The position numbers and the translations under genes are program-made. A stretch of DNA of 64,000 nt from positions 109,502-173,501 of the forward strand of contig CAKSFM010000001.1 of the NCBI GenBank assembly GCA_934454525.1, read 5' to 3'. Below are positions 2 to 21,316 of this stretch, one piece after another. This DNA is from an uncultured Clostridia bacterium (lineage in GTDB: Bacteria > Bacillota > Clostridia > UMGS1883). The notes beneath the pieces were generated by a model. The model was not told the DNA's origin, searched no databases, and saw only the letters and a program-made list of their open reading frames with translations. The number at the start of each line of letters is the position of its first letter. The first letter of the stretch is position 1.

Positions 2-220
2 ATACTGCGCGGCTATGCGGAAGCGGCAGGCATTAAATCTGAAATAAACGCGCAAACACTGCGGCATTCATTTGCAATGCATCTGCTGCAGAACGGCGCC
101 GATATCAGTGCCGTTTCGGAAATGCTGGGGCATAAGGACGTTGCAACAACGCGCCGCTACAACCAGGTTTTGAAAGAAAATATAAAGAAAATATACAAAA
201 AAGCTCATCCGAGAGCTTAG
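2..220 (+). CDS. tyrosine site-specific recombinase, XerC/XerD/integrase family (C-terminal fragment; 5' end lies outside window)
   Basis: Frame-2 ORF enters from the window edge and stops at TAG 218-220. Catalytic-domain motifs are visible: LRHSFAMHLL (H-x-x-R) and GHKDVATTRRY (nucleophile Tyr). Confidence 0.8.
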   Translation: MLRGYAEAAGIKSEINAQTLRHSFAMHLLQNGADISAVSEMLGHKDVATTRRYNQVLKENIKKIYKKAHPRA

Positions 221-286
221 GCATAAATCTGAAAGACTGAAAAAGTCTGAAAATCAGGATTTTTCAAGGCGTAAGGGCTTGTCATA

Positions 287-352
287 CTGACGTATATCAA
301 GCCGGCAACACAGAAAAAGACGATTTTCAGGCTTTTTGAGCGGGCTCGGATA
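287..352. repeat. Module 'B' of a modular intergenic repeat family (copy 1); the same about 66 bp recur at 15293-15358
   Basis: 'ctgacgtatatcaagNcNgNcaacacagaaaaagacgattttcaggctttttgagcgggYtcggata' matches at both sites with about 4 mismatches. It contains the 'atactgacgtata' core. Confidence 0.8.
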
Positions 353-373
353 TTAACCGGCAGCATAATAGAC

Positions 374-684
374 GGCGGACAAAGTCAATTGGCTTTAGCC
401 ACAGCCAGATAAGGAAGTATTGCCCTGCTAAACATCTTTTTTGCGAATTTCAGCGTTAAAAAAGGCTCGAAATCCGACAGGATTACTCGCTTTTTTGCCT
501 TGAACTTCATCAAAAAATATTGTTTACAGGGTGCAGGGCAGTTTTGAAGGTCGGAATTTAAGATTTAGACAAGTAAACAGGCAGTCGTAATACTGACGTA
601 TACGGCTGCCTGTTTACGAAGTATAAACTTAAAGAACGGCTTTCAAAACCAATACTTCCTTATCGGGTTGTGGCTTTGTCCGCC
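374..684. repeat. Imperfect inverted repeats (374-422 and 650-684) bracketing a 227-bp segment; the segment holds a 12-bp-stem hairpin (573-617) and a promoter-like TAGACA-16-TAATAC (566-593)
   Basis: rc(650-684) gives 'ggcggacaaag' plus 'ccacaacccgataaggaagtattg'. The left arm is 'ggcggacaaag[14-nt insert]ccacagccagataaggaagtattg'. The internal hairpin is 'gtaaacaggcag'/'ctgcctgtttac' with the loop 'tcgtaatactgacgtatacgg'. Confidence 0.6.
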
Positions 685-695
685 GCCTCCTTTTT

Positions 696-4311: not shown

Positions 4312-4317
4312 TAAGCA

Positions 4318-4352: not shown

Positions 4353-4424
4353 AAAAAATCAGCGCTTGTTATAATTATTCTAAAAATCAGCATAACACGA
4401 TTTAATATATAAAATATCTTCGTA

Positions 4425-5099: not shown

Positions 5100-5118
5100 T
5101 GATAACCATCCTTCCTAT

Positions 5119-5679: not shown

Positions 5680-5713
5680 CTAATTGACGGAATCGAGCAA
5701 TGCATTGTTAATA

Positions 5714-6028: not shown

Positions 6029-6030
6029 TT

Positions 6031-6159
6031 TTACTTCCTCCAATTAATTGGTTTTTCTGGCACAAGATGTGTTCCAGATTTGGAATAATGTATTATCCCA
6101 ACCGTGGTATCATATGATTTTCCCGTCTTTGGGTCAACATATTTTCCTATTATTTTTTT
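6031..6159 (-). pseudogene. C-terminal fragment of a degraded toxin gene (no start codon). Its stop overlaps the RBS of the downstream acidic gene
   Basis: Open frame 'KKIIGKYVDPKTGKSYDTTVGIIHYSKSGTHLVPEKPINWRK*' with no ATG/GTG/TTG start. It is bounded upstream by TAA at 6160-6162. Confidence 0.4.
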
Positions 6160-6200
6160 TTAATTAACAGTTTCTCTGTTTGTGCCAATCTTTCGACCTT

Positions 6201-6267
6201 ATTGAAAATCAATCGATGGTGAAAGCCGCTGCAAAGAACTTTGCTCTTTCCAAATCGAGTGTACATA
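6201..6267 (+). repeat. 67-bp duplicate of an internal spoIIID segment (matches 8102-8168, codons 17-38), 2 mismatches
   Basis: 'attgaaaatcaatcgaYggtgaRagccgctgcaaagaactttgctctttccaaatcgagtgtacata' matches. Confidence 0.85.
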
Positions 6268-6310
6268 CAATTGTAACAAGACAGCAACCTTTTATATAGA
6301 AGTGGCTTCA

Positions 6311-6652
6311 CTAACAAGTTTGCACAGATACAGATGAAGCTTTAATTTCAATTTCAATATATTTCCCGGATAAATCATTAAACACCGTCAGTACTATCTC
6401 ATTTTCATTGTTTGATACCACTTTTGAAATTTCATCACTGTTTATCCGATATGTACTATAATGAAGATTCGTACATTCACTAAATTTTATAACTATATTA
6501 CCAGTTTCCGGCATTTCATCCGTATAACCATCTTGCTGCCAATAGCAAAAATCAACATATAACTTAACAGTTGCCGTTTTTTTATTATAATCAATTTCTT
6601 CCAAAAGACTATCATGCAAGTTGTAATTCTGAATAAATTCTTTTATTGTCAT
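6311..6652 (-). CDS. Hypothetical protein; putative immunity protein for the toxin at 6669-7244
   Basis: Starts 'MTIKEFIQNYNLHD...' at 6652 with RBS GGAGGG, 16 nt after the toxin stop. The ORF-track start at 6718 would overlap the toxin. Confidence 0.45.
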   Translation of the reverse strand: MTIKEFIQNYNLHDSLLEEIDYNKKTATVKLYVDFCYWQQDGYTDEMPETGNIVIKFSECTNLHYSTYRINSDEISKVVSNNENEIVLTVFNDLSGKYIEIEIKASSVSVQTC

Positions 6653-6668
6653 AAAATTATCCCTCCAA

Positions 6669-7244
6669 TTATGGTATGATATGTGACTTTTTAGAGTTTT
6701 TCGGCACTGGGTTTCCAAATTTATCTAAATAGTAATCATGTTTGCCTGTTGAGTTTGGATTTAAAATATGATAATGATCCTTTCCTCCATATCCTCCCAT
6801 GCTTCTTTTCCCTTTGTGAAACCTTATTGTATAACCGTTCTTTTTGAACATCCTTGATGTTGTATTCTTCTTCATTGCTGCCGGAGTTATTTCTTCCCAA
6901 CCGTTTTCCACTAGTTTCGATGGAGTTTTGTGTAATTTCAGTATTTTAACCCCCGATTTAGTAGCATCCGTAGCTTTGTCAGCAGCCTTAGCGGCATCTG
7001 CCGCTTTATCTGCCATTTTAGCAAGTTTTGCCGTGTCTGCAACTTCTCCGGCAAAGGGGATTATTCCCACAGCGTCAAGTCCTGCCGATAGCAAATCGCC
7101 CCGCAGCAAATCAACAGGTATTGACGCAAAATCAGTAAATGTGTCAAGTCCGGGAATTAGCGATGCCGCCGTTAAAAGGTTGCTTAATGCATCTAATGCA
7201 TTGCCTTTTGTATTCCCAAAATTCCCCGATTTTCCCGCACCCAT
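6669..7244 (-). CDS. Polymorphic-toxin-like protein: shared N-module plus a C-terminal HNH-like (H-Y-H...N...H) candidate nuclease domain
   Basis: The N-terminal 100 aa are identical to the other copies. The C-terminus is 'GGKDHYHILNPNSTGKHDYYLDKFGNPV'. The ATG overlaps the stop of the upstream ORF (TAATG), giving translational coupling. No UTR hairpin is present here. Confidence 0.55.
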   Translation of the reverse strand: MGAGKSGNFGNTKGNALDALSNLLTAASLIPGLDTFTDFASIPVDLLRGDLLSAGLDAVGIIPFAGEVADTAKLAKMADKAADAAKAADKATDATKSGVKILKLHKTPSKLVENGWEEITPAAMKKNTTSRMFKKNGYTIRFHKGKRSMGGYGGKDHYHILNPNSTGKHDYYLDKFGNPVPKNSKKSHIIP

Positions 7245-7807
7245 TAAGCAGTCACCTGCTTCCTGGACTTTGAAATTTCACTTTCAAAATGCACAATATT
7301 GATGCCCATATCCTTATATGGCTTAAAAATACTTTCCGGTGCACCGCCATAAACTACTATAGTTTCAGGCGATAGCCTTTGCACCATACGGGCGAGACCT
7401 ATTTCAAAAAAGATTTTATCCTCTTTGTGTTTAATACATCCGTGTGTCCCTACCGCGACAGTTTTATTTTCTTCTACCGCGTCAAAACAGAATGAGAACG
7501 TCCTCTCATCCCCAAATCTCACATTGGGGATAATTTCAACTCCGTTATTTTGAAGCCAGACCGATAAAGCTCTGCCTCTATATGTATTCCACATTTGCAT
7601 GCAAAGCGGCATATTGCGATACAGGCTGAAATCCGGCGAAATTATGCCCTTGAACTTTTTGAGTTTCGCAAGGTACTGTTTGGGATTATGCCATAGGCAT
7701 AACCTCATCTTTTTCAAACTGAAAAATATATGTAAACGTTGCATAGTTTTTTTCATTTCCCACATAAGTGTATAAATGTGGCAAAATATTGTCTTTTTCA
7801 GCGTCAA
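7244..7807 (-). CDS. Hypothetical protein translationally coupled to the first toxin gene; the true start is probably internal (about MPLCMQMW/MQMW)
   Basis: The C-terminal 110 aa 'NGVEIIPNVRFGDERTFSFCFDAVEENKTVAVGTHGC...IVVYGGAPESIFKPYKDMGINIVHFE' look protein-like. The N-terminal 70 aa look like a non-coding translation. Confidence 0.35.
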   Translation of the reverse strand: MTLKKTIFCHIYTLMWEMKKTMQRLHIFFSLKKMRLCLWHNPKQYLAKLKKFKGIISPDFSLYRNMPLCMQMWNTYRGRALSVWLQNNGVEIIPNVRFGDERTFSFCFDAVEENKTVAVGTHGCIKHKEDKIFFEIGLARMVQRLSPETIVVYGGAPESIFKPYKDMGINIVHFESEISKSRKQVTA

Positions 7808-8053
7808 GCAAGTGGGCCGTTATATCAACAACGGCAGTACACAGGCTTGATTTACCCGAGCCGTTTTTACCGATTTTGGAAATGAGTAATAAAACAAGGT
7901 TCTTTAAAGATTTTCAGGAATTTTACCTGTAAGGGTTTTAGCGCTTCGGCTGTTTTGGGAATAATAGCGCCCGATAACTTTTGCAATAATGCCGCCCTTT
8001 ATCATATTCGGGCATAAAAGCGCATATGTTAGAGTGAAAAGGGGGCTATATGC

Positions 8054-8323
8054 GTGAAAGACTATATCGAACAGCGCGCCTTAATGCTGGCAGATTACAT
8101 AATTGAAAATCAATCGACGGTGAGAGCCGCTGCAAAGAACTTTGCTCTTTCCAAATCGAGTGTACATAAAGATGTTACGGACAGACTGCTTAAAATTGAC
8201 CCGACACTTGCGCGAACCGTTAAAGCCGTGCTTGACAAAAACAAGGCGGAGCGGCACATCCGCGGCGGAATGGCAACAAAACGCAAGTACGAGGAAAAGA
8301 AGCGCCGATACGCTAATATCTGA
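8054..8323 (+). CDS. spoIIID: Stage III sporulation protein D (SpoIIID), mother-cell transcription factor
   Basis: '(M)KDYIEQRALMLADYIIENQSTVRAAAKNFALSKSSVHKDVTDRL...IRGGMATKRKYE' closely matches B. subtilis SpoIIID. GTG start with RBS AAAGGGGG. Confidence 0.9.
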   Translation: MKDYIEQRALMLADYIIENQSTVRAAAKNFALSKSSVHKDVTDRLLKIDPTLARTVKAVLDKNKAERHIRGGMATKRKYEEKKRRYANI

Positions 8324-8981
8324 GAATTGCAATCGCCGCGGCGCACATCAAAAGAGTGAACACAGCCGCGCCGTACAGTGCAAGCTTCGGTTTTCCTCCA
8401 TCGCCGCTCGGGCGCATTTCAGCCATGCCGGTTTTCCGCAGAATCTTCACAAACGGCTTGTAAAGCATGACAGCAAGCGAAGAATTTATCGTGCATTTAA
8501 TCAGATTGAACGGCAGAAAAACCGGAAGCAGCATTTTCACAATATCGCCGCGCGGAATTTCCATGTAAAGAGGCGTGAGCGCATAGTTCCACACAAGCAT
8601 GGTGGCGGCAGATGCCGCCGTTCCGAGTGCGAGTCCGGCAATTGCCGATGGCAGGCGCCTGTTTCTTCCGTATACTGCCGATGCAACACACGCAAACGCA
8701 CAGCTTGAAATTACATTCATAACAAAACCTATTAATCCCGTTTCGCTGATTGTGAGCATTTCCGCAAGTGAGACAACTGCCGAGATTAAAAACGCGGTCA
8801 TAGGACCGTACAAAAATCCTCCTATGACAATAATAATATCCTTCGGGTCATACTTTAAAAAGGATATTATACTTATCGGAACAGCCTTTCCGATGATCAC
8901 TGCCGCATATGCAAGCGCGCAGAGCAGCGCCGTGCATGTTATTTTCTTTGTTTTGTTCATAGCCGCAAACATTCCTTTCAT
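8313..8981 (-). CDS. ribU: ECF-transporter substrate-specific (S) component, riboflavin type (RibU), inferred from the upstream FMN riboswitch
   Basis: Protein with about 5-6 TM helices and the small hydrophobic S-component architecture. It lies directly downstream of the RFN element and overlaps the 3' end of spoIIID convergently by 11 bp. The start could instead be ATG 8972 or 8960. Confidence 0.7.
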   Translation of the reverse strand: MKGMFAAMNKTKKITCTALLCALAYAAVIIGKAVPISIISFLKYDPKDIIIVIGGFLYGPMTAFLISAVVSLAEMLTISETGLIGFVMNVISSCAFACVASAVYGRNRRLPSAIAGLALGTAASAATMLVWNYALTPLYMEIPRGDIVKMLLPVFLPFNLIKCTINSSLAVMLYKPFVKILRKTGMAEMRPSGDGGKPKLALYGAAVFTLLMCAAAIAILRY

Positions 8982-9148
8982 ATAAAAAATGCGCCCCTTA
9001 TAAATCGGGGCGCATTTTTATTGCATTTTAAAATCTCCTGTCATCCGGACTTTAACCGTCGGCTGCGGAGTTTCACCGCATCGGCCTCAAATGAGGTTAG
9101 TGGGCTTTGACCACCGGTAGGGAATTTCACCCTGCCCCGAAGATATAT
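8982..9148 (-). ncRNA. FMN riboswitch (RFN element) with an intrinsic terminator (8982-9019) as expression platform
   Basis: The minus strand reads 'aucuucggggcagggugaaauucccuaccgguggu...gaggccgaugcggugaaacuccgcagccgacgguuaaaguccggaugacaggagau'. This matches the B. subtilis ribD leader consensus. A hairpin 'aaaaaaugcgcccc/ggggcgcauuuuuu' plus U-tract sits just before the ribU start. Confidence 0.85.
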
Positions 9149-9152
9149 TTAT

Positions 9153-10403
9153 TTACTGATTCTGTTTTTCATCCGCCTGAGCTGCGTCCTGCGCGGTATC
9201 CTGCGTTTGCTGCGCCGAATCCTCCGCAGGAGCTGTGCTCTGCTGTGCGTCTGCATTTTTCTGAGCCGCATCAGCTGCTTTCTTTCTTGCCTTGCTCCAC
9301 TCGTCAAGGTATTTATCAATCGTTTCGTTTTCAAACTTAACGGGTTTCATTTTCTTAAGCTTCTTATCGATAAGACCCATCACTTTTTCCTGAAGCTTTT
9401 GCTTTTTATAGTCCTTGAATTCATCAATTGAGTCATCAATAGCATATCTCTTAATGATGTGATAGCCGTAATCTGTTTTAACCGGTTCTTTAGTGTAGCT
9501 TCCGATTTCAAGATTTTTTGAAGCTTCCTCAAATTCGGGAACCATCTCGCCCGTTCCGAACACATAGAACTTACCCTTTGAGATTCCGGGGTCTTCGTTA
9601 TATTTTTCTATAAGGTCATCAAAGTCCGCGCCCTCGTCAAGCTTGGCAATAACTTTCTTGGCAATTTTCTTTGCTTCTTCATCGGTTTTGGCAGGCTTTG
9701 TTTCGTTTCCGCTGCTGTCTTTCTGCGCCTGTGTTCCGATAAGAATGTGCTGAACTCTCCACTTGTCGGCATAATCCTTAAGGAAATCCTTTTTAAGCTT
9801 GCTCTTGTCAATCGATGCCTTGCCGTCCGTTTTCGTAAGTTCCTTGTAAAGGCGGTCATAAATCTCGCAGATTACAAGATAACGGTCGAACGCCTTATCG
9901 GTTGTTCTCGCTTCCTCAAGATATGCCTTGTATCCGTCAGTTCCATTGTAATTCTGTTCAATAAGATTATTCTTGTTTTTCGTAACGGCATTCTCAACAG
10001 CCGTGGAATCCGCTTTTATTCCGTTATCCTCCGCAAGAGCAACAGCGGCAACCATCTGCTTTATCTGCGCTTCGGTGTTTTCTTTCATATAATCTCCCAT
10101 GGTCTTGCCGTCCTCAATCTCCATGGCTTCCCAGTCATCTCCGTAATACGAAGAGTACTGCGACATATTGTCATACACAAGCTTATATATAAAATTATAA
10201 TCTGCCTGTGTGATCTTGGTTTTGCCTATTGTGGCAACAACGCTGTTATTAAGCGTTTTATCCCCGTCCGTTGCAATAACCTTATCTTTAAACGATTTGC
10301 CCCCGCCCGTTCCGGCTGACATTTTATCTCCGCTGCCGCAGCCGCTGAGAAGCATAACAGCCGAAAGTGCGGATGCGCACAGAGCCGTAAATTTCTTACC
10401 CAT
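9153..10403 (-). CDS. prsA: Foldase lipoprotein PrsA (parvulin-type peptidyl-prolyl isomerase)
   Basis: Lipobox 'LLSGC', the PPIase core 'RVQHILIG...GYHIIKR', and a low-complexity acidic/Q-rich tail. Start ATG 10403 with RBS AGAAAGGA; the track start at 10433 is TTG. Confidence 0.8.
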   Translation of the reverse strand: MGKKFTALCASALSAVMLLSGCGSGDKMSAGTGGGKSFKDKVIATDGDKTLNNSVVATIGKTKITQADYNFIYKLVYDNMSQYSSYYGDDWEAMEIEDGKTMGDYMKENTEAQIKQMVAAVALAEDNGIKADSTAVENAVTKNKNNLIEQNYNGTDGYKAYLEEARTTDKAFDRYLVICEIYDRLYKELTKTDGKASIDKSKLKKDFLKDYADKWRVQHILIGTQAQKDSSGNETKPAKTDEEAKKIAKKVIAKLDEGADFDDLIEKYNEDPGISKGKFYVFGTGEMVPEFEEASKNLEIGSYTKEPVKTDYGYHIIKRYAIDDSIDEFKDYKKQKLQEKVMGLIDKKLKKMKPVKFENETIDKYLDEWSKARKKAADAAQKNADAQQSTAPAEDSAQQTQDTAQDAAQADEKQNQ

Positions 10404-10500
10404 TATTCCCAATCCTTTCTCATGTGATTTCAAAAATCTAATATATTATATAACATCGGATTCGGATTTGCAAGTACTTTACACTTTATTTACAATTTTT

Positions 10501-10926
10501 TTAACCGACATAATTATCGATAATTTTTCTTTCCTGCATATTGATTTTCAAACCCTCGCCCGTGGCAACCTCCCGAAACGCGGTTTTTACATCGGATGTG
10601 ATTTTATTGCTTTCATTAATCAGAAACCAAACGCTGCGCAATTCATTCCAGTACTTCGGGTGATTGATTACACCGTGTTTTTGTATATGGTTCATCAGCA
10701 GGATGACATTTCCGTCCGACATATCAGTTTTAACATTATTATAAAGCTCTGCCCTTTTTCTCAGGAAAAACAGGTAGATATATATAAGATAGGCAGCGAC
10801 CGCGCCGAAAACGCCTGTCGGCAAAGCAAGAACAACTGCCAGTATCGGAAGCTTGTCCACCTTGATTCTGCTGTAAACCGGAATCAGAACTATAATGGAA
10901 ATCGGGATAAGATAAGCATAGTTCAT
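10501..10926 (-). CDS. Hypothetical small membrane protein (2 TM)
   Basis: Start ATG 10926 with RBS AAAGGGG. It lies downstream of a consensus promoter at 10957-10986. Confidence 0.5.
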   Translation of the reverse strand: MNYAYLIPISIIVLIPVYSRIKVDKLPILAVVLALPTGVFGAVAAYLIYIYLFFLRKRAELYNNVKTDMSDGNVILLMNHIQKHGVINHPKYWNELRSVWFLINESNKITSDVKTAFREVATGEGLKINMQERKIIDNYVG

Positions 10927-12881: not shown

Positions 12882-12952
12882 ATTATATATTGCAATAATG
12901 CCGCGCGTCTGTTATAATTACATTACGACAAAACAATTCGGGAGTGAAGCAA

Positions 12953-13378
12953 ATGATGCCCGGCAAAAAAATCCTCGGACTTGATTACGGCGAAGCGCGC
13001 ATAGGAGTTGCGGTGAGCGATATTTTCGGAATGGTTGCAACACCCATGGAAACAATCTGTGAGAAAAACCGCGACCTGCAGCTCAAAAAAACAGCCGAAG
13101 TCATCGCCGGTAACAATATAGGGAAAATCGTTGTCGGTTATCCGAAAAGGATGGACGGCACCATCGGTCACCGTGCGGAGTACACAAAGGCATTTGCCGA
13201 GGAGCTTTCCGAGAAAACGGGCGTTGAGTACGTTTTGTGGGATGAGAGGCTTTCCAGCACCGAAGCTCACAGGATTCTTGAGGAGGGCGGCGTGAGCGGA
13301 AAGAAGCGCAAAACAAAGGTTGATAAGATTGCCGCCGTTATTATCCTGCAGGGTTATCTTGACAGCTGTACTCACTGA
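12953..13378 (+). CDS. ruvX: Putative Holliday-junction resolvase / pre-16S rRNA nuclease RuvX (YqgF)
   Basis: 'KILGLDYGEARIGVAVSD' N-terminal motif, 140 aa. DUF1292 follows downstream, as is typical in Firmicutes. Confidence 0.85.
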   Translation: MMPGKKILGLDYGEARIGVAVSDIFGMVATPMETICEKNRDLQLKKTAEVIAGNNIGKIVVGYPKRMDGTIGHRAEYTKAFAEELSEKTGVEYVLWDERLSSTEAHRILEEGGVSGKKRKTKVDKIAAVIILQGYLDSCTH

Positions 13379-13661: not shown

Positions 13662-13744
13662 TTTTTTCGGTTCGCTGTGTTAATATGGCATTGTTACCCT
13701 GCGGTGTGCGCAGTTACGGATTTATTTTAACCAACACTTCTACT

Positions 13745-13845
13745 ACGGGAGATCATATAGAGCTGTGGCGTGTAAGCCCTTACCTACGGGTCAGAGGGAA
13801 ACCCAGGAGCAGCTCCGAGATCACCCACCTGCTCACGCAGGTTTA
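13745..13845 (+). ncRNA. Candidate small structured RNA, SRP-RNA (4.5S-like) domain-IV-like motif. Boundaries are approximate
   Basis: 'ccuuaccuacgggucagagggaaacccaggagcagcuccgag' resembles the SRP RNA helix-8 consensus 'uuaccaggucagguccggaaggaagcagcc' (GUCAG...GNRA loop...AGGAGCAGC). The region is intergenic, the ORF at 13658-13846 is implausible, and I could not draw a convincing fold by hand. Confidence 0.3.
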
Positions 13846-13907
13846 GAATATTCCGAAATAAACGGCACTGCGGGGTTTTTATTTTATAATTTAAGGAAGG
13901 ATTTCAA

Positions 13908-14870
13908 ATGAAAAAAGGAATTAGAGCTTTTATACTTGCGGCGGCGCTTTCAGTTTCGCTTCCGATTTCTTCACTTGCAGCGTTTAAGGATATGCCCTCG
14001 GGCGCGGACGGTGCCTGCCTTCAGCGCGCCGTTGACAACAATTTGCTTACCGGCTTTGAGGATGAAACAATCCGCCCGGCAGACGCGATTACACGCGCCC
14101 AGATGGCGGCAATCACAGTGCGCGCTTTCGGAGCAACAAGGGCAGCCGACATTGCAAATTACACGGACGTTTCTTCTTCCGACTGGTTTTATGATTCCAT
14201 GGCAAAGGCAGTTGCAATGGAGGCGTTCCAGGGCAGCGGCAACAAGCTGAACCCCACGGACAATATATCACGCCAGGAAGCCATGATTGTGCTCTCAAGA
14301 GTTTTTGCCCTGCCGGAGTCTGACGGTGCGCTTGATAAATATACCGACGCATCTCTTGTTGCGGACTGGGCAAAGGACGGCGTTTCCAAAATTGCTGGCG
14401 GCGGGTATCTTCCGGAAAACGACTCGGCGCTTCGCCCGACAGATAAGATGACGCGCCTTGAATTTGCGCAGATTATGGATAAGCTGGTAAGTATGTACAT
14501 AACGGAAAGCGGCGAATATACGGCGGATAAGCTTTCGGACGGAAACATTCTTGTTAAAGCGTCCGATGTGTCATTTAAAGGCATGGAGGAAAGCACCTCC
14601 GTTATTATCGGCGATGGTGTGGACGGAAAAACAAGCTTTACCGACTGCAAGCCAAGCCGCGTTATTATCCGCGGCGGTACGTGCATTATAAACTCCGGCA
14701 CGTACAAAGCGGTAAATGCAATCGGTTACGGAACAAAGCTCGTGCTGATGAAACATCCTTCGGAGCTTATTATCCCCGGCAGCACAGCTGTTTTTGACGC
14801 TGAGAGAGGTAAGGGAGAGATAATTTTAACGCTTCCGAGCCTTGAAGTACCTGACAAAAAGAGCAATTGA
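13908..14870 (+). CDS. S-layer-homology (SLH) domain cell-surface protein with signal peptide
   Basis: Signal peptide 'MKKGIRAFILAAALSVSLPISSLAA', followed by three SLH-like repeats ('FKDMP...', 'YTDVSSSDWF...', 'YTDASLVADWAKDGV...'). Confidence 0.75.
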   Translation: MKKGIRAFILAAALSVSLPISSLAAFKDMPSGADGACLQRAVDNNLLTGFEDETIRPADAITRAQMAAITVRAFGATRAADIANYTDVSSSDWFYDSMAKAVAMEAFQGSGNKLNPTDNISRQEAMIVLSRVFALPESDGALDKYTDASLVADWAKDGVSKIAGGGYLPENDSALRPTDKMTRLEFAQIMDKLVSMYITESGEYTADKLSDGNILVKASDVSFKGMEESTSVIIGDGVDGKTSFTDCKPSRVIIRGGTCIINSGTYKAVNAIGYGTKLVLMKHPSELIIPGSTAVFDAERGKGEIILTLPSLEVPDKKSN

Positions 14871-14924: not shown

Positions 14925-15213
14925 AATTTAATAACCAAACGCAATGAAGGGAAGGAGTAAATACCCTGAACCGGTTATAGAGAGAGGCGGACGGTGGAAG
15001 CGCCTTATCGGAAGGTATTGAAGTAGTCCCGGAGCGGCTGACCGAACAGTGCACGGTGCGCTAAGTAGACTCAGACGGAGAAGTTTCCGCCGTATAAAGG
15101 GATTTCGGCATCGATTTATTTCCGTGCTGTATGAGGTGCAAGGATAGTTCCCTTGCATGAAGTTAGGTGGTAACACGAGTCATTCGTCCTAATACGGACG
15201 GATGACTTTTTTT
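14925..15213 (+). promoter_or_regulatory. T-box-like riboswitch leader (Stem I with AGAGAGA bulge and a distal loop containing GGUGGAA, T-box sequence, antiterminator/terminator)
   Basis: The T-box-like sequence 'aaguuaggugguaacacgag' at 15160-15179 sits upstream of the terminator. The antiterminator can form as 'uagg'-[UGGUAAC bulge]-'acga...ucgu'-'ccua'. The competing terminator is 15179-15213. The specifier codon could not be assigned by hand. Confidence 0.5.
15179..15213 (+). terminator. Intrinsic terminator of the leader (11-bp stem, U7)
   Basis: 'gtcattcgtcc taatac ggacggatgac ttttttt'. Confidence 0.8.
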
Positions 15214-15227
15214 GTTAGGCATAGCAG

Positions 15228-15378
15228 ACCCGAACACATGCGCCCAATGCTTGTTAAATTTCCGCTCAGCCGTTCTTTCGGGATTTGCAAGGCTGACGTA
15301 TATCAAGACCGACAACACAGAAAAAGACGATTTTCAGGCTTTTTGAGCGGGTTCGGATACTGACATATCTGCCTACGG
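15228..15378. repeat. Modular repeat, modules A (15228-15292), B (15293-15351) and C (15352-15378)
   Basis: A matches 17214-17275 (57 bp identical). B matches 287-344. C ('ttcggatactgacatatctgcctacgg') matches 17176-17201 and partly 589-612. Confidence 0.8.
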
Positions 15379-15465
15379 AAAACCGTCCGCAATAAGACCG
15401 CTTATTACCCGACTCTTTGTACACTCCGCGGAACACGCCTTATTTTATATTTTTCGGGAGGATTT

Positions 15466-17121
15466 ATGATGGAACTGTTAAACAACTATTTACCGAGGAT
15501 TGATTTTGACGATTACGATGATTTTAAGCAAAATTTCTCAATAAACGTACCTGAGCAATTTGACTTTGCGCGCGATATTGTTGACGGCTGGGCAAAGCTT
15601 GAACCCGGCAAGCGCGCCTTGCTTTATACAAATGACAGCGGCTGTACGCGCGAATTCACCTTTAGGGAGATATCGGAGCTTTCCAAGCGCGCAGCATCGT
15701 ATTTTATCAGTTTAGGCATAAAAAAGGGTGACAGAGTGTTCACGCTTCTGCGCAGGAGATGGGAATATTGGATTTGCGCGGTTGCGCTGCACCGCATTGG
15801 AGCTGTTGTTGTTCCCGGTTCGGTTCAGCTCACCGAGAAGGACATTCTCTACAGAATTAACGCGGCGCAGGCGAAGCTTCTTCTCGCTGTTAATGACAGC
15901 TTTGTTACGGAACAGATTAAGGATTTATTGCAGAAATGCGATTCTCTCCGCCATATTCTGATTGCCGGTGATTCCGCAGCGGATGGTTTTAAATATTTCA
16001 ACAGCGAATTTATAAAGCATGAACCGTACAGCGAACGCCCCGAGGCAGCCAACAGTGACGAAATGGTAATCTACTTCACCTCCGGCACATCAGGCATGCC
16101 TAAAATGGCAATTCATAACCGCACATATCCGCTCGGGCACATTGTGACGGCGAAATATATGCAATGCGTTCAGAACAACGGACTGCATATCACTCAGGCA
16201 GACAGCGGCTGGGCAAAGTTCGGCTGGGGCAACATATACGGACAGTGGATTTGCGGCAGCGCGGTTCTGGCATATGACCCGCTGCGGTTCAATGCTGCAC
16301 ACTTTCTCGAAACAACGGAAAAATACAAACCGACCTCAATGTGTATTCCTCCGACAATGTACCGCTTTCTTCTTCGTGACGGACTTGAGAAAAAACATAT
16401 TGCATCGGTTAAATGGTTTTCAACGGCAGGCGAGCCGCTTTCAGGCGAGGTAAACAGCCGTTTTCACGAAATCACGGGGCATTATATTCACGAGGGTTTC
16501 GGACAAAGCGAGGGTACCCCGATAACCTGCGGATTTCCCTGGATTGAGGTGCGTCCGTCATCAATGGGCAAACCCTCTCCCCTGTACCGCACGGCGATTA
16601 TCCGTCCGGACGGTTCTCCCTGCGGCTGTGGCGAGGAGGGCGAGGTTGTTATATTCACGGACGGCGGACAGCTCGGACTTCTTGACTGCTACTTTGCGGA
16701 CGGAGAAAAAATATACCCGGTTAAGGATGGAATATATCACACCGGCGACACTGCGTACTGTGACAAAGACGGATATTACTGGTATGTCGGCAGAACGGAC
16801 GATGTGATAAAATCCTCAGGCTATCGGATAGGACCGTTTGAAATTGAAAGCGTACTCAATTCGCACCCTGCCATCCGCGAAAGTGCGATTATCGGTCGGC
16901 CGGATGATATGCGCGGTCAGATCGTATGCGCAGTTGTTGCGCTCTCAAGCGGTTATGAACCGTCAGACGAGCTTACGCGTGAACTTAAGGACTATGTAAA
17001 GCACAAAACCGCACCTTACAAATATCCCCGTATTATAAAGTATATTGACGCACTGCCGAAAACAACCTCGGGGAAAATAATCCGAAATGAGGTAAAAAAG
17101 ATATACAGTGCAGTAATTTAA
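15466..17121 (+). CDS. AMP-forming acyl-CoA synthetase, medium-chain (ACSM)-like
   Basis: AMP-binding motif 'YFTSGTSGMPKM', 'GRTDDVIKSSGYRIGPFEIE', and an N-terminus 'FDFARDIVDGWAKLEPGKRALLY...GDRV' typical of the ACSM family. RBS GGGAGG. Confidence 0.8.
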   Translation: MMELLNNYLPRIDFDDYDDFKQNFSINVPEQFDFARDIVDGWAKLEPGKRALLYTNDSGCTREFTFREISELSKRAASYFISLGIKKGDRVFTLLRRRWEYWICAVALHRIGAVVVPGSVQLTEKDILYRINAAQAKLLLAVNDSFVTEQIKDLLQKCDSLRHILIAGDSAADGFKYFNSEFIKHEPYSERPEAANSDEMVIYFTSGTSGMPKMAIHNRTYPLGHIVTAKYMQCVQNNGLHITQADSGWAKFGWGNIYGQWICGSAVLAYDPLRFNAAHFLETTEKYKPTSMCIPPTMYRFLLRDGLEKKHIASVKWFSTAGEPLSGEVNSRFHEITGHYIHEGFGQSEGTPITCGFPWIEVRPSSMGKPSPLYRTAIIRPDGSPCGCGEEGEVVIFTDGGQLGLLDCYFADGEKIYPVKDGIYHTGDTAYCDKDGYYWYVGRTDDVIKSSGYRIGPFEIESVLNSHPAIRESAIIGRPDDMRGQIVCAVVALSSGYEPSDELTRELKDYVKHKTAPYKYPRIIKYIDALPKTTSGKIIRNEVKKIYSAVI

Positions 17122-17175
17122 GATATTTTGTTCATTTTTGCGCTGTAATGTCGGAAAAGGCTTCAAAAAAACGAG

Positions 17176-17275
17176 TTCGGATACAGACATACCTGCCTAG
17201 GCATAAGCGACCCGAACGCCATGCGCCCAATGCTTGTTAAATTTCCGCTCAGCCGTTCTTTCGGGATTTGCAAGG
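17176..17275. repeat. Modular repeat, modules C' (17176-17201) and A' (17214-17275). This is the same family as 15228-15378 but in a different module order
   Basis: 'gttcggatacagacatacctgcctagg' followed by 'gaacgccatgcgcccaatgcttgttaaatttccgctcagccgttctttcgggatttgcaagg'. Confidence 0.8.
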
Positions 17276-17472
17276 CGGCAGCCTTGCTTCATCCTGCAAG
17301 AACACCTGAACAAAAATTTTCCGGTGCATTGAGTCTGCGAGTTCAAAAAGAGCAAATTTTTTGCAAAAAAAGGCAAAAGCGCAGTTAATAGTTTGTCTAT
17401 TAACGAGCATTTTAACGCATTATTGCGACAAATTTGCCTTTTATGACGCTGTGGGTTCAGGTCGCTTATGCC
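17200..17472. repeat. 18-bp inverted repeats ('ggcataagcgacccgaac' at 17200-17217, its reverse complement at 17455-17472, 1 mismatch) bracketing about 237 bp. MITE-like
   Basis: rc(17455-17472) is 'ggcataagcgacctgaac'. Confidence 0.7.
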
Positions 17473-17493
17473 TATTTTTTTATTTCATTATTC

Positions 17494-17522
17494 TTGACTA
17501 TCCCTAAAATTTCATATATAAT
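17494..17522 (+). promoter_or_regulatory. Sigma-A promoter TTGACT-17-TATAAT for nifJ
   Basis: Boxes at 17494-17499 and 17517-17522. RBS AAAGGAGG before ATG 17572. Confidence 0.65.
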
Positions 17523-17571: not shown

Positions 17572-20500
17572 ATGGCAAGAAGAAAAAAAACTATGGATGG
17601 CAACACCGCCGCCGCATTTGTGTCATATGCGTTTACGGATGTTGCTGCAATTTACCCGATAACGCCTTCGTCAACAATGGCTGAGGTGACGGATCAGTGG
17701 GCAGCTCAGGGCAAAAAAAATATTTTCGGAAGAACCGTTAAAATTGCCGAGATGCAGTCCGAGGGCGGCGCTGCCGGCGCTGTTCACGGTTCACTCACGG
17801 CAGGCGCTCTTACGACAACCTATACGGCTTCGCAGGGACTTTTGCTTATGATTCCGAATATGTACAAAATTGCCGGTGAGCTTTTGCCGTCGGTTATCAA
17901 TGTTTCGGCACGCGCACTTGCATCGCACGCACTTTCGATTTTCGGCGACCATCAGGACGTTTACGCCTGTCGGCAGACGGGGTATGCAATGCTTTGCTCC
18001 GTCAATCCGCAGGAAGCAATGGATCTCGGCGCGGTTGCACATCTGACGACAATTAAATCGCGTGTTCCTTTCCTGCATTTCTTCGATGGTTTCAGAACAT
18101 CGCATGAATATCAAAAGGTAGAATGTTGGGATAACGAGCAGCTTGCCGATATGCTTGATTTTGATGCGGTTGACGCTTTCAGGCGCCGCAGCCTTAACCC
18201 CGAGCATCCGGCGCAGCGCGGAACGGCGCAGAATCCCGATGTTTTCTTCCAGGCAAAGGAAGCAAATAACAAATATTATGACGCCGTACCCGAAATATGC
18301 CTTGATTATATGAACAAGGTAAACGAAAAAATCGGAACGGATTACAAGCTGTTCAACTACTATGGCGCAGCTGACGCGGAGCACGTTATCATTGCAATGG
18401 GCAGCGTTTGCGACACTATTGAGGAAACGGTTGATTATCTTAATAAAAACGGCGCAAAAGTCGGCGTGATAAAGGTAAGACTGTATCGTCCGTTCAGCGC
18501 AAAGCACCTTATTGAAGCTATTCCCGATTCCGTTAAGAAAATCAGTGTGCTTGACAGAACCAAAGAATGCGGCGCTGTCGGCGAACCTCTTTATCTTGAT
18601 GTTTGCGCAGCTCTCCGCGGAAGCAAATTTGCAAACGTTGATATTTTCGGCGGACGTTACGGTCTTGGTTCAAAGGATACTACACCGGCGCAGATAATCG
18701 CCGTTTACAAAAACAAAGACAAGGAGCACTTCACCATCGGCATTAACGATGATGTTACGCACCTTTCGCTCGAAATCACGGAAAATCCCGACACAACCTC
18801 TGACAAAATTACCAGCTGCAAATTCTGGGGACTCGGTGCGGACGGAACTGTCGGCGCAAATAAAAACTCCGTTAAGATTATCGGCGACCACACCGATATG
18901 AACGTTCAGGCTTACTTTGATTACGATTCCAAGAAATCGGGCGGTCTGACGGTTTCGCACCTGCGCTTCGGCAATGCGAAAATCACAAGCACATACCTTA
19001 TCAACAAGGCTGACTTTGTTGCATGCCACAAGGCTTCATATATCAGAAAGTACGACATGGTAAGCGATGTTAAACCCGGCGGTGTGTTCCTTTTGAATTG
19101 CCCGTGGACAACCCCCGAGGAATTTGACACTCATATTCCCGGACAGGTTAAACGCTATATTGCTGAAAATAACATTCAGTTCTATGTAATTGACGGTGTT
19201 CAGATCGGCAAGGAAATCGGCCTCGGCAGCAGAATCAACACGGTTCTTCAGTCAGCGTTCTTCAAGCTTGCAAACATCATTCCGGCTGAGGACGCAATCA
19301 AATATATGAAAGACGCCGCAACGGCTTCCTACAGCAAAAAAGGCGAGGCCATCGTTAAGATGAATCACGATGCTATCGATATGGGCGCTCAGCGCGTTGT
19401 CAAGGTCAATGTTCCCGCCGAATGGAAGAATGCCAAGGACGAGGATCTCTCTGTTCGTGTTGACGGCAAGGGCAGACTTATTGAATATGTCAACAACATT
19501 CTTCATCCCATCAACGCATTTGAGGGAATGAAGCTCCCTGTTTCCGCATTTGAACCGTACGTTGACGGCGAAGTTCCGCTCGGAAGCGCAGCTTTCGAAA
19601 AGCGCGGCATTGCAATCGATGTTCCGGCATGGAACGGGGAAAACTGCATTCAGTGCAACTTCTGTTCATTCGTATGTCCGCACGGCTGTATCCGCCCCGT
19701 TGTTCTCACGGAAGATGAGGCGAAAAATGCTCCCGAGGGCACGAATTATGTGAATATGACGGCTATGAACGGTCTTTATTTTGCGATGGCTGTTTCCGTG
19801 CTCGACTGTACGGGCTGCGGCTCCTGCGTGAACGTTTGCCCGGGCAAAAAGGGTGTAAAAGCGCTTGAGATGAAGCCGCTCGAAACTCAGGAATCACGCC
19901 AGGCAGTGTTTGATTATGCCGTAACGATTCCGTCAAAACCGGAGGTTTCCGAGAAGTTCAAAGAAACAACCGTTAAGGGCAGCCAGTTCAAGCAGCCGCT
20001 GCTTGAATTTTCCGGTGCATGTGCAGGCTGCGGCGAAACACCGTATGCAAAGCTTGTAACGCAGCTTTACGGCGACAGAATGTATATTGCAAATGCAACA
20101 GGCTGTTCGTCCATTTGGGGCGGAAGCTCCCCCTCAACGCCTTACACAACGAACGCCGCAGGCGAAGGTCCGGCATGGGCAAACTCGCTGTTTGAGGATA
20201 ATGCAGAGTACGGCTATGGAATGCTTCTTGCACAGGAAACGCTCCGCAGCGACCTTATTTCCAAGGTTGAAGCAGTTAAGGAAACAGCCGATGATAAAGC
20301 AAAGAGCGTTATTGATAAATTCCTTGACACAAAGGACAGCTCCTCCGACAACAAGGTTGCGGCTGCCGAGCTTATCAAGCTTCTTTCCGACATGAACACT
20401 CCCGAAGCTGCCGCAATCCTCAAGGACAAGGAATATCTCTCCAAGAAATCCGTTTGGGTGTTCGGCGGCGACGGCTGGGCATACGATATCGGATTCGGCG

Positions 20501-21093
20501 GACTTGACCATGTTCTTGCAAGCGGCGAGGATGTGAACGTGCTTGTATTCGATACCGAGGTTTATTCCAACACGGGCGGTCAGTCCTCCAAATCGACTCC
20601 CACAGGTGCAATTGCAAAATTTGCCGCTGCCGGCAAGGAGGTTAAGAAAAAGGATCTTGCCGCAATTGCAATGAGCTACGGTTATGTATATGTTGCTCAG
20701 GTTGCGCAGGGCGCCGACTACAATCAGTGTATGAAAGCGTTTGTTGAAGCCGGTTCTTATCATGGTCCGTCACTCATCATTGCATATGCTCCGTGTATCA
20801 ACCATGGTATTAAGGGCGGCATGAGCATTGCTCAGACGGAGGAAAAGAGAGCCGTTCAGGCAGGTTACTGGCATCTGTTCCGCTATGATCCCAGGCTTGT
20901 TGCTGACGGCAAAAACGGATTCATTCTTGATTCCAAAGAGCCGACCGAGAGCTATGAAGAATTTATAATGAACGAAGTTCGTTATAATTCGCTTGCGCGC
21001 AGCAACCCCGAAAGAGCGAAAGAGCTGTTTGCAAAGGCTTCGGAAAATGCAAAGAAAAAATATGCTCATCTTGTTGAGCTTGCAAACAAATAA
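17572..21093 (+). CDS. nifJ: Pyruvate:ferredoxin (flavodoxin) oxidoreductase, single-polypeptide PFOR
   Basis: 1173 aa. An N-terminal PFOR domain, two 4Fe-4S ferredoxin motifs (CIQCNFCSFVCP, CTGCGSCVNVCP), and a TPP-binding region 'GGDGWAYDIGFGG'. Confidence 0.95.
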   Translation: MARRKKTMDGNTAAAFVSYAFTDVAAIYPITPSSTMAEVTDQWAAQGKKNIFGRTVKIAEMQSEGGAAGAVHGSLTAGALTTTYTASQGLLLMIPNMYKIAGELLPSVINVSARALASHALSIFGDHQDVYACRQTGYAMLCSVNPQEAMDLGAVAHLTTIKSRVPFLHFFDGFRTSHEYQKVECWDNEQLADMLDFDAVDAFRRRSLNPEHPAQRGTAQNPDVFFQAKEANNKYYDAVPEICLDYMNKVNEKIGTDYKLFNYYGAADAEHVIIAMGSVCDTIEETVDYLNKNGAKVGVIKVRLYRPFSAKHLIEAIPDSVKKISVLDRTKECGAVGEPLYLDVCAALRGSKFANVDIFGGRYGLGSKDTTPAQIIAVYKNKDKEHFTIGINDDVTHLSLEITENPDTTSDKITSCKFWGLGADGTVGANKNSVKIIGDHTDMNVQAYFDYDSKKSGGLTVSHLRFGNAKITSTYLINKADFVACHKASYIRKYDMVSDVKPGGVFLLNCPWTTPEEFDTHIPGQVKRYIAENNIQFYVIDGVQIGKEIGLGSRINTVLQSAFFKLANIIPAEDAIKYMKDAATASYSKKGEAIVKMNHDAIDMGAQRVVKVNVPAEWKNAKDEDLSVRVDGKGRLIEYVNNILHPINAFEGMKLPVSAFEPYVDGEVPLGSAAFEKRGIAIDVPAWNGENCIQCNFCSFVCPHGCIRPVVLTEDEAKNAPEGTNYVNMTAMNGLYFAMAVSVLDCTGCGSCVNVCPGKKGVKALEMKPLETQESRQAVFDYAVTIPSKPEVSEKFKETTVKGSQFKQPLLEFSGACAGCGETPYAKLVTQLYGDRMYIANATGCSSIWGGSSPSTPYTTNAAGEGPAWANSLFEDNAEYGYGMLLAQETLRSDLISKVEAVKETADDKAKSVIDKFLDTKDSSSDNKVAAAELIKLLSDMNTPEAAAILKDKEYLSKKSVWVFGGDGWAYDIGFGGLDHVLASGEDVNVLVFDTEVYSNTGGQSSKSTPTGAIAKFAAAGKEVKKKDLAAIAMSYGYVYVAQVAQGADYNQCMKAFVEAGSYHGPSLIIAYAPCINHGIKGGMSIAQTEEKRAVQAGYWHLFRYDPRLVADGKNGFILDSKEPTESYEEFIMNEVRYNSLARSNPERAKELFAKASENAKKKYAHLVELANK

Positions 21094-21100
21094 CAAAAAA

Positions 21101-21316
21101 GGGGATGTTAAAAAACTCCGGAACGCAAGAAAAGAAGAAAAAGCAGATATTACAGGCAGCATAGCTATTGTAATTAGCTTTTATTAAAGGTAGAAAAATC
21201 AAAAATTTGATTTTTCAAAGAATCACTTCTTTTCTTGCTATCAACAAACTTCGCCGCTCGGCGTACCTATGTACGCCGTCGGGTAACCCAAAGCTAACGC
21301 TTTGGCTCAGTTTGTT
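21101..21316 (+). repeat. About 200-bp intergenic element (copy 1). It begins 7 nt after the nifJ stop. An inverted copy lies at 54812-55015
   Basis: Conserved blocks 'ggggatgttaaaaaRctccggaacgcaagaaaagRagaaaaagca' and 'tagaaaaatcaaaaatttgatttttcaaagaatc...ttttcttgctatcaacaaacttcgccgctcggcgtacctatgtacgccg'. Confidence 0.85.

Follow-up and report, generated by a model that had tools for sequence, protein, structure and literature searches.

Repeats known as bcr1 in the Bacillus cereus group are intergenic, about 155 bp long and have the properties of non-autonomous transposons (MITEs, as defined in PMC3184786). They show 5-bp direct repeats, are distributed differently among related strains and are predicted to adopt a cruciform-like fold of two stem-loops with compensatory changes (PMC3184786). 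The Correia/NEMIS elements of Neisseria, the ERIC elements of enterobacteria and the RUP elements of pneumococcus combine terminal inverted repeats and short duplications with the lack of a transposase gene and a long RNA stem-loop, are intergenic and differ in presence between close strains, and ERIC-type elements carry 5'-TA-3' at both termini (PMC3184786). Among insertion sequences, duplication of a YTAR target is typical of IS5 (PMC10359306).

We analysed a window of 64,000 nucleotides (the whole stretch of DNA under study) from an uncultured Clostridia bacterium, for which the initial annotation had proposed a family of three intergenic repeat modules, A, B and C, shuffled around an acyl-CoA-synthetase-like (ACS-like) gene. 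The modules belong to two related, non-coding, hairpin-forming mobile elements of about 275 bp, here called F1 and F2, which are represented by a single intact copy and several fragments. The family is of a familiar kind, its hosts are uncultured human-gut Clostridia, and it is undescribed; literature searched by description gave no report of it. The repeats are probably copies and relics of MITEs from a superfamily abundant in such Clostridia.

Units behind the repeats

The sequence likenesses reported among the repeat copies are all present at or near the positions first given. Module A relates 15216-15293 to 17198-17276 (94% over 79 nt, including a run of 57 nt with 100% identity), module B relates 287-357 to 15293-15364 (93%) and module C relates 15348-15388 to 17172-17212 (80%). 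The unit at 17200-17472 was rightly described as MITE-like, and its 18-bp terminal inverted repeats extend to 20 nt with one mismatch when the flanking TA is included. Such repetition is far beyond chance: terminus searches allowing up to three mismatches gave 3 and 2 matches against 0.01 and 0.00 expected, counts reached in 0 of 100 shuffles. The places of the copies were correct while the units proved longer, the first spanning 225-357 instead of 287-352 and C' reaching back to 17133.

What did not hold was the reading as three shuffled modules, since two sister elements, truncated and in differing orientations, account for A, B, C and C' (Table 1). As a reference for F2 we used an intact copy of about 275 bp (L041, 700->425; F1 and F2 measure 273-276 bp), to which the window segments 357-225, 15375-15293 and 17133-17199 are 90-92.5% identical, with F2 nt 1-83 matching 15375-15293 at 90% (blastn). 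Relative to the parent element, B/C and C' have opposite orientations (blastn against intact F2). The F1 fragment at 15218-15294 stops where the first hairpin arm of F1 has its apex, the 3' fragment of F2 adjoins the intact F1 with TA 17198-17199 common to both, and the F2 copy at 225-357 begins just past the stop codon (218-220) of a recombinase gene. F1, F2 and a further element, F3, have a common design of GGCA...TGCC-type terminal inverted repeats, a closing stem formed by both ends and two long hairpins.

Table 1. Elements, element fragments and neighbouring features in the window.
Feature	Position	Strand	Details
XerC/D-type tyrosine recombinase gene, 3' end (...HPRA, stop), cut by the window edge	2..220	+	Pfam Phage_integrase, E = 3e-16
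F2 5' half (F2 nt 12-146), inverted, including first module B (287-352)	225..357	-	91.9% over 135 nt (blastn)
F3, third element of the same design	373..687		Inverted repeat; closing stem 373-422 with 650-684, two long hairpins
T-box leader	14935..15208	+	Rfam RF00230, 95.4 bits; terminator 15177-15208 (terminator scan)
F1 5' fragment (nt 1 to ~78), module A	15218..15294	+	94% to 17198-17276; TA before, at 15216-15217
F2 5' fragment (F2 nt 1 to ~83), modules B + C, inverted	15295..15373	-	TA after, at 15374-15375
AMP-binding (acyl-CoA-synthetase-like) gene	15466..17121	+	Pfam AMP-binding and AMP-binding_C
F2 3'-terminal fragment (F2 nt 210-276), including C' (17175-17199)	17133..17199	+	92.5% over 67 nt to intact F2 (blastn)
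F1, intact, 273 bp, module A' at its 5' end	17200..17472	+	Terminal inverted repeats 17200-17217 and 17455-17472; TA at 17198-17199 and 17473-17474
Sigma-70-type promoter of PFOR-like gene (17572-21093)	17494..17522	+	TTGACT-17-TATAAT, 11/12 matches

F3 lay outside the original finding and is an element of the same kind. It folds into a Y shape with a minimum free energy of -149.6 kcal/mol, and a second copy was found at an unrelated locus (L028, 971-1250).

The intact F1 scores 294.8 bits over the full length of covariance model R1 and folds into a 20-bp closing stem and two long hairpins. The initial annotation had called for a search for module copies elsewhere, and such copies do occur at many gut metagenome loci. 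Searching metagenomes with a 22-nt F1 core gave 13 genuine copies with flanks that were all different, so that F1 occupies 13 or more loci in gut metagenomes; at least 6 of the 13 copies lie within one assembly and several at contig ends. Including the one in the window, eight copies are full-length (272-274 bp, 94% column identity in the alignment), all eight with matched termini of 18 nt, or 18-20 nt with 0-5 mismatches. TA stands on both flanks in four of the eight. At L037, F1 sits at the TA of CCCTGC-TA-AAC inside an F3-like copy, as seen by comparing the filled site with the consensus, and no clean empty sites for other F1 copies were found among the fetched loci. We rejected TA as a firm target duplication of F1, since only the four copies fit and the L033 copy is flanked by CA...TG, which fits pairing rather than duplication. 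The case is weak because TA...TA is also expected from a 2-nt extension of the inverted repeat; a duplication of at most 2 bp (TA) is no more than suggested.

The variable part of the F1 terminal stem differs by 29% between copies, compared with 7% for the interior, which is unusual for ends bound by a transposase. A guide-like link between this variable stem and the flanking target was considered and dropped, as L034 and L042 have the same stem and different flanks. The sole open reading frame of F1 (MRPMLVKF..., starting in module A) lacks conservation, being thrown out of frame in other copies by an indel at alignment column 82, and a scan detected no promoter- or terminator-like signals inside F1.

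Insertion alleles around the ACS-like gene

In the window, the fragments at 15218-15373 are inserted between the T-box leader and its ACS-like gene. Comparison of orthologous loci, another check that had been proposed, showed that the repeat-bearing intergenic regions are structurally polymorphic among strains. The T-box-ACS spacer exists in four alleles, and two states, filled and empty, occur at the downstream site. The F2 fragment at 15295-15373 corresponds to a 77-bp insertion relative to L020 and is confined to the window lineage (the window, L001-L003 and L057-L059). In L020, L045, L046, L048 and L049, the F1 piece is present alone and followed directly by TTACGG, and in other relatives a deletion of 100 bp between ACCCGA repeats has left only an 18-nt F1 stub. 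Downstream of the gene, the ACS-PFOR spacer of the window lineage measures 450 bp; that of every relative of 93% identity measures 124 bp, and these relatives also have no counterpart of the F2 fragment at 17133-17199. The -35 box of the PFOR promoter lies 19 nt downstream of the F1 end, and the same promoter is found without the element in L020.

The idea that the gene, bracketed by repeats, forms a mobile or polymorphic segment was contradicted by these comparisons. In L020, L021, L022 and L045-L056, the gene resides behind the same T-box without one or both repeats, and the bracketing is therefore a by-product of independent insertions in two neighbouring intergenic gaps. As judged from sequence, the ACS-like gene is a resident gene under putative T-box control and not cargo. 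The recombinase mentioned in the initial annotation is probably the XerC/D-type gene end at 2-220, the alternative being RuvX at 12944-13378. No association with the repeats could be established for either, as neither the XerC/D-like gene nor RuvX accompanies copies at other loci, and the proximity of both is coincidental. The neighbours in the window also include an SLH protein.

Structured relatives of 172 nt

The core hairpin of the elements is present in 48 gut contigs. A related type of 172 nt, with termini GGCAAYACCGCA... and ...TGCGGTRTTGCC, is represented by its terminus in more than 120 gut contigs, and the superfamily is abundant in uncultured human-gut Clostridia. Perfect 4-bp direct duplications flank this type at 11 of the 20 distinct insertion sites examined (TTAG, TAAA and CTAA twice each; TTAT, TTAA, GGAG, TTTA and AAAG once each), and most of the imperfect sites agree at three of four positions. 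L082, an ordinary bacterial chromosome, holds five copies in 10.6 kb, and copy density is about one per intergenic gap. We discarded the notion that small contigs labelled viral are ssDNA phages with a replication-origin hairpin, since L065 is a tailed-phage fragment and L082 plain chromosome. A plasmid collection gave no match, and a phage collection nothing but a 53-nt match in unverified faecal scaffolds.

Base pairing is maintained in both types. In the F1 alignment, 96.9% of cells are paired, as opposed to 34-46% with partners slid, and nine pairs have changed on both sides (3.2 +/- 1.4 in shuffles, with 0 of 500 reaching nine). For the 172-nt lineages the paired fraction is 93.6% against 31-46%, and 33 compensated pairs compare with 15.7 +/- 2.6 in shuffles, none of 500 reaching 33. 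Length is exactly 172 nt in all four lineages. The given strand is more stable by 8.5-27 kcal/mol in five of five sequences and holds 29 G.U cells versus 7 A.C cells. In case of F1, folding energy favours no strand, and a strand call from G.U excess was abandoned; because the two disagree, the strand-specific claim is kept for the 172-nt relatives only. An apical hairpin is invariant, consisting of AAAGCGCAG, an 8-bp stem, a loop, the returning stem and CGAGCAUUUU, with flanks conserved in F1, F2 and the 172-nt types. Searching F1, F2, F3 and the 172-nt relatives with the Rfam 15 covariance models yielded no match with E-value cut-offs relaxed to 0.5-10, the highest score being 18 bits for c-di-GMP-I (threshold 35).

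Mobility, rival readings and known systems

The copies are dispersed, occur as other alleles or are absent in close relatives, and carry 4-bp duplications in the 172-nt relatives; we therefore interpret them as MITEs. This upholds the mobile-element origin first proposed in place of simple REPs. Terminal inverted repeats are found in F1 and the 172-nt relatives, target duplications are clear in the latter and only suggestive for F1, and the elements are small (172-315 bp) and carry no transposase gene. Presence and absence among relatives includes filled and empty alleles at the window's own sites. A cognate transposase with matching termini was not found in GTDB representatives, in 1.4 Mb of fetched loci or at L061. 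In the GTDB representative genomes, a degenerate F1 terminus gave about 14 matches, which is about chance level, and no autonomous element; the only related matches, L015, L016 and L017, are one partial copy each. Termini spaced 0.7-3 kb apart did not occur in the 1.4 Mb of fetched loci, and the IS30-like transposase of L061 was rejected as parent since termini of the family do not flank it.

We propose that a transposase acting in trans recognises the conserved tips and that insertion would occur in AT-rich intergenic DNA at sites centred on TA, often beside an existing copy. Inserted copies would then decay through truncation and deletion, presumably with frequent breaks between short direct repeats or at the apexes of hairpins, and this decay would be why modules A, B and C were seen in the fragments. 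Within the element, the sequence would be held base-paired in one strand, most likely as RNA arising from co-transcription with neighbouring genes, and the apical hairpin AAAGCGCAG...CGAGCAUUUU is a candidate protein-binding site. In the window, insertions lengthen the leader between the T-box riboswitch and the ACS-like gene and others lie just 5' of the PFOR promoter, where effects on expression are conceivable; they do not mobilise the ACS-like gene.

A different emphasis would make the elements chiefly structured non-coding RNA genes or modules that serve the cell, for instance as protein-binding scaffold or transcript stabiliser, and have been spread by transposition. Very strong compensatory covariation, the exact 172-nt length over divergent lineages, one-strand stability with G.U excess, the invariant apical hairpin with its conserved flanks in F1, F2 and the 172-nt types, and an interior better conserved than the terminal stem all agree with a functional fold. 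We nevertheless consider this unlikely, given that F1 has no internal promoter- or terminator-like signals, no strand bias in folding energy, and that no Rfam family matches; copies also occur in both orientations and as decaying fragments, and one copy per intergenic gap fits selfish spread. Compensated folds are moreover reported from accepted MITE-like repeats such as bcr1 (PMC3184786). Quite unlikely, too, is a superfamily of transposon-borne structured RNA with its own function, in which the rod or Y fold, the exact length and the hairpin are kept for specific protein binding. If true, the bound protein could be the mobilising enzyme, giving an RNA-assisted transposition system, or else a host factor whose binding site the element spreads over hundreds of intergenic regions of gut Clostridia. 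Movement as single-stranded DNA hairpins, either by an HUH transposase in the manner of REPIN/RAYT or IS200/IS605 or as relics of phage or plasmid single-strand origins, would account for nearly complete self-complementarity, strand-specific structure in the 172-nt relatives, arms that evolve in concert and matches in contigs labelled viral. HUH-mobilised elements (IS200/IS605, REPINs) are not known to have target duplications or terminal inverted repeats, whereas clear 4-bp duplications and true terminal inverted repeats are present here, and we regard such movement as highly unlikely. The examined viral contigs are ordinary chromosome or tailed-phage fragments and the plasmid collection lacks a match. 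REP and REPIN units are small G+C-rich stem-loops not known to carry target duplications, and for REP units PMC3733652 gives 20-40 bp, in contrast to 172-315 bp, terminal inverted repeats and 4-bp duplications here.

Extremely improbable is the view that the repeats are recombination sites of attC or Xer/dif type around a mobile cassette, at which the nearby tyrosine recombinase excises, duplicates or inverts the ACS-like gene. Direct module A repeats with a spacing of 1983 bp do lie on either side of the gene, the copy at 225-357 has the end of a tyrosine recombinase gene next to it, and conserved tips with a variable complementary stem look superficially like attC. However, the gene is found behind the same T-box without one or both repeats and a homologue with 72% protein identity lies in an unrelated neighbourhood, while the flanking pieces are different fragments from independent events, with four alleles upstream and a filled or empty site downstream. 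No integron integrase is present: the recombinase ends in ...HPRA like XerC/D, is 15 kb away and does not co-occur with copies elsewhere, RuvX is a resolvase, and the ACS gene is found in all relatives. The integron idea had arisen from GTTAGGC-like motifs and the recombinase label, and was given up with RuvX, an SLH protein and a T-box as neighbours and a resident ACS gene. Further, the termini GTTCGGG / CCCGAAC do not fit GTTRRRY/RYYYAAC, and the target duplications of the 172-nt relatives are not a product of site-specific recombination. One contig (L019) has another copy of module A attached to the ACS locus, which could reflect repeat-mediated rearrangement and could equally be an assembly chimera, because coverage is 2.75x and the switch falls inside the 79-bp repeat.

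The interpretation as MITEs removes a false lead, as neither is the ACS-like gene a mobile cassette nor do the recombinases nearby have anything to do with the repeats. It also defines an undescribed superfamily of small, structured mobile elements that is very abundant among uncultured human-gut Clostridia. These elements break metagenome assemblies, with many contigs beginning or stopping inside a copy, can give chimeric joins and yield N-terminally extended gene calls; the 601-aa ACS proteins are such calls, made from an ATG in module A that is in frame with the gene. A further consequence is strain-level structural variation in regulatory regions, namely in the interval between T-box riboswitch and gene and just 5' of a strong promoter. 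Covariation is pronounced enough to warrant a new RNA or repeat family model, which would improve annotation of gut genomes and would permit a test for RNA-level action of the folds.

Compared by description, bcr1 matches F1 and the 172-nt relatives in architecture and evolutionary pattern, and differs in that the present elements measure 273-276 bp (F1/F2) or 172 nt, have a putative TA or a 4-bp, partly YTAR-like duplication instead of 5 bp, and reside in uncultured gut Clostridia. With Correia/NEMIS, ERIC and RUP they have in common the traits listed at the outset, with a predicted RNA stem-loop and including the terminal TA of the ERIC type. Unlike these classical MITEs, they are of greater length and branch into two arms above a closing stem; the terminal stem, though hypervariable, remains complementary, and several sister families insert beside and into one another. 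We know of no cognate insertion sequence. IS5 may be the source of the transposase, as the 4-bp duplications of the 172-nt relatives resemble YTAR: TTAG, CTAA and TTAA fit, while TAAA, TTAT, TTTA, GGAG and AAAG do not strictly do so and F1 shows only TA. IS5 inverted repeats begin with GG, as do the termini of the present elements, though the genomes and loci searched yielded no DDE transposase, IS5-like or otherwise, whose termini match. BOX of Streptococcus pneumoniae (boxA-boxB-boxC), in which three module types are variously combined, was the implicit model of the initial annotation. In contrast to BOX, the modules described here are what truncation has left of two complete elements, in differing orientations, and the complete copies are fixed in architecture and length.

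Composition of the repeats around the ACS-like gene

The initial annotation described intergenic modules A, B and C in shuffled order around an acyl-CoA-synthetase-like AMP-binding (ACS) gene. The underlying similarities are confirmed: copies of module A (15216-15293 and 17198-17276) are 94% identical over 79 nt with an identical 57-nt run, those of module B (287-357 and 15293-15364) 93% and those of module C (15348-15388 and 17172-17212) 80%. Also confirmed are the 18-bp inverted termini (17200-17217 and 17455-17472), reaching 20 nt with one mismatch when the flanking TA is included. Both terminus kinds far exceed shuffled sequence (0.01 and 0.00 expected; observed counts attained in 0 of 100 shuffles), while sensitive self-comparison found no additional module copies within the 64-kb window. 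The repeats are a real, non-random feature and form a family that is new but of known type.

Beyond the window, a 22-nt core of module A matched 17 metagenome loci, 13 of them genuine copies with unrelated flanks (six from a single assembly, several at contig ends). Eight are complete, measure 272-274 bp and are built like the 17200-17472 unit. This element is termed F1, and module A forms its initial 78 nt. With a covariance model of these copies, F2 (86 bits) was identified as a diverged full-length sister abutting an F1 copy in contig L041. Comparison with F2 accounted for the other pieces (see table). The shuffled module order is an artefact, the pieces being oppositely oriented, truncated parts of two related elements, and C resembles C' because they are F2's two inverted termini. 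A further element of like design, F3 (ca. 280-315 bp; closing stem of at least 26 nt plus two long hairpins), lies immediately beside the first F2 fragment and is likewise dispersed, with another copy at a separate locus (L028, 971-1250). The palindromic motif ATACTGACGTAT or a near variant, corresponding to the previously noted 'atactgac.tat' core, occupies hairpin apexes in F2, F3 and one F1 sublineage.

Other repetitive sequence was also observed. A ca. 190-bp intergenic repeat unrelated to F1, F2 or F3 occurs inverted at 21089-21278 and 54832-55020 (ca. 90% identical, 33.5 kb apart), with a perfect 24-nt palindrome at 54816-54867. Positions 3000-8200 hold clustered short paralogous genes alongside repeats of families D1-D3 and D15.

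Features of the window and of related contigs (window positions unless a contig is named)
Feature	Position	Strand or orientation	Remark
XerC/D-type tyrosine recombinase C-terminus	2-220		extreme window start; ends ...HPRA*
First B copy, F2 nt 12-146	357-225	inverted	comparison with F2
F3	373-687		beside first F2 fragment
Metallophosphoesterase	4425-5099		within 3000-8200 cluster
DUF4417	7244-7807		within 3000-8200 cluster
FMN riboswitch	9029-9148	-	Rfam; unrelated to repeats
RuvX	12944-13378
DUF1292 protein			near repeats
6S RNA	13693-13880	+	Rfam
SLH-domain protein	13908-14870
T-box leader	14935-15194		terminator 15177-15208
Modules B and C, F2 nt 1-83	15375-15293	inverted	comparison with F2
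AMP-binding (ACS-like) gene	15466-17121
C' plus ca. 45 nt upstream, F2 nt 210-276	17133-17199	forward	comparison with F2
Near-consensus promoter	17494-17522
PFOR-like gene	17572-21093
tRNA	59143-59217	+	Rfam; unrelated to repeats
ATACTGACGTAT-type motif	283-294, 586-601, 15354-15365		also in L034 and L042 F1 variants
pemK RNA motif	L041 889-984		Rfam; adjoins F1/F2 pair

Dispersal and insertion of the elements

Flanking sequence differs at every F1 locus compared. Between L015 and L017, sequence on the right side of TA|GGCATAAG... is orthologous and that on the left is unrelated, and the element end is therefore a true breakpoint. The spacer between the ACS-like and PFOR genes measures 450 bp in the window lineage. 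In relatives with 93% ACS protein identity it is 124 bp and contains neither F1 nor the F2 fragment. Four alleles of the T-box-ACS spacer exist among relatives: no element (L021, an 88% relative), F1 nt 1-78 only, the same F1 piece with the inverted F2 fragment added (window lineage), and an 18-nt stub that remains after loss of 100 bp between two ACCCGA repeats. Copies tend to insert beside or inside one another: in the window F2 is followed by F1 with a common TA, L041 has F1 and F2 tail-to-tail, and in L037 an F3-like element is interrupted by F1 at the TA of CCCTGC-TA-AAC. Both fragments in 15218-15373 terminate at the apex of the parent element's first hairpin arm, suggesting that breakage or template switching may occur at the tips of hairpins.

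The clearest signature of mobility comes from shorter relatives of 172 nt. Scans for the conserved apical hairpin and for the 172-nt terminus found 48 gut contigs and more than 120 contigs, respectively. Perfect 4-bp direct duplications (TTAG, TAAA, CTAA, TTAT, TTAA, GGAG, TTTA, AAAG), the mark of staggered-cut transposition, flank the 172-nt type at 11 of 20 distinct insertion sites, the remainder mostly matching at three of four positions. The contigs bear viral labels. One of them, L082, carries five copies in 10.6 kb (1-10636), approximately one per intergenic gap. It is listed as viral in IMG/VR but is ordinary bacterial chromosome encoding a tRNA synthetase, a Mur ligase, a ClpB-like ATPase and ABC transporters; the 172-nt repeats may contribute to false viral calls or contig breakage.

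The ACS-like gene and its T-box leader

The ACS-like gene had been proposed to be a bracketed cassette, excisable or invertible through its flanking repeats and near a recombinase. This is not supported, as the same T-box leader precedes the gene in relatives whether they carry no repeat, one repeat or other combinations. Even at 72% protein identity and in an unrelated neighbourhood the gene follows a T-box, with the leader only ca. 54 nt away. The recombinase, probably the XerC/D-type gene end at the window start, does not co-occur with repeat copies at other loci. The sole hint of repeat-mediated rearrangement is contig L019 (2480-2700), where, compared with L020 and L029, a different module-A copy that follows a DNA ligase gene, with two substitutions in its terminus, runs into the ACS locus. 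Because the switch falls inside a 79-bp repeat at 2.75x contig coverage, chimeric assembly is no less likely. The genes surrounding the repeats are ordinary chromosomal genes, and a scan of the 1-9 kb region of the window revealed no transposase gene.

In alleles without the F2 fragment, an ATG inside module A (window 15238) is in frame with the ACS gene, and gene callers therefore yield extended forms of 601 aa, as in L019 and L020 (P0003), with a spurious 50-residue N-terminal extension, MRPMLVKFPLSRSFGICKA....

An AMP-binding ACS-like gene is an unusual T-box target. The leader was also seen upstream of this gene in L022 (4667-4946), and relatives with as little as 72% protein identity retain the linkage. 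Judged from its place in the alignment, the specifier appears to be GUA (Val). Together with the downstream PFOR-like 2-oxoacid:ferredoxin oxidoreductase, this arrangement could serve valine salvage from a branched-chain acid.

Conserved folds and class of the elements

In the eight F1 copies the termini pair into a 20-bp closing stem, which is accompanied by two long hairpins (102 pairs in all, ca. -113 kcal/mol). In this fold 96.9% of cells are paired versus 34-46% with partners slid, and nine pairs are altered on both sides versus 3.2 +/- 1.4 in shuffles (0 of 500 attain nine). Copies diverge mainly in the middle of the closing stem (29%, compared with 7% for the interior and 3% for the tips), yet the variable stem strands remain mutually complementary. 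The 172-nt type comprises four divergent lineages, each exactly 172 nt long and folding into a rod in which 33 of 66 pairs are compensated versus 15.7 +/- 2.6 in shuffles (0 of 500 attain 33) and 93.6% of cells are paired versus 31-46% with partners slid. This rod is strand-specific, with the given strand favoured by 8.5-27 kcal/mol in each of five sequences and G.U cells outnumbering A.C cells 29 to 7. An excess of G.U cells (54 versus 8) favours the same strand in F1, but this remains suggestive only since folding energies disagree. One apical hairpin with invariant flanks AAAGCGCAG...CGAGCATTTT is common to F1, F2 and the 172-nt types, its 8-bp stem varying in a compensated manner. No Rfam family matched F1, F2, F3 or the 172-nt relatives.

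These repeats are best explained as a superfamily of non-autonomous transposons (MITEs) with sequence constrained to fold, most likely as RNA. They combine inverted termini, target duplication and a long stem-loop fold with the absence of a transposase gene from the elements, as described for MITEs (PMC3184786). A cognate transposase or autonomous parent, also expected of MITEs, was found neither in the GTDB scan nor in the fetched loci, and an IS30-like gene in L061 is not bounded by termini of this family. The elements are of moderate interest owing to their abundance in uncultured gut Clostridia, their covariation, which is unusually strong and partly strand-specific, and their practical effects on assembly, gene calling and regulatory-region variation. 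The 4-bp duplications partially resemble the YTAR duplication of IS5 (PMC10359306). The closest described analogue of the superfamily is bcr1 of the Bacillus cereus group, a transcribed repeat of ca. 155 bp with flanking 5-bp direct repeats, strain-variable distribution and a cruciform-like two-stem-loop fold kept by compensatory changes (PMC3184786).
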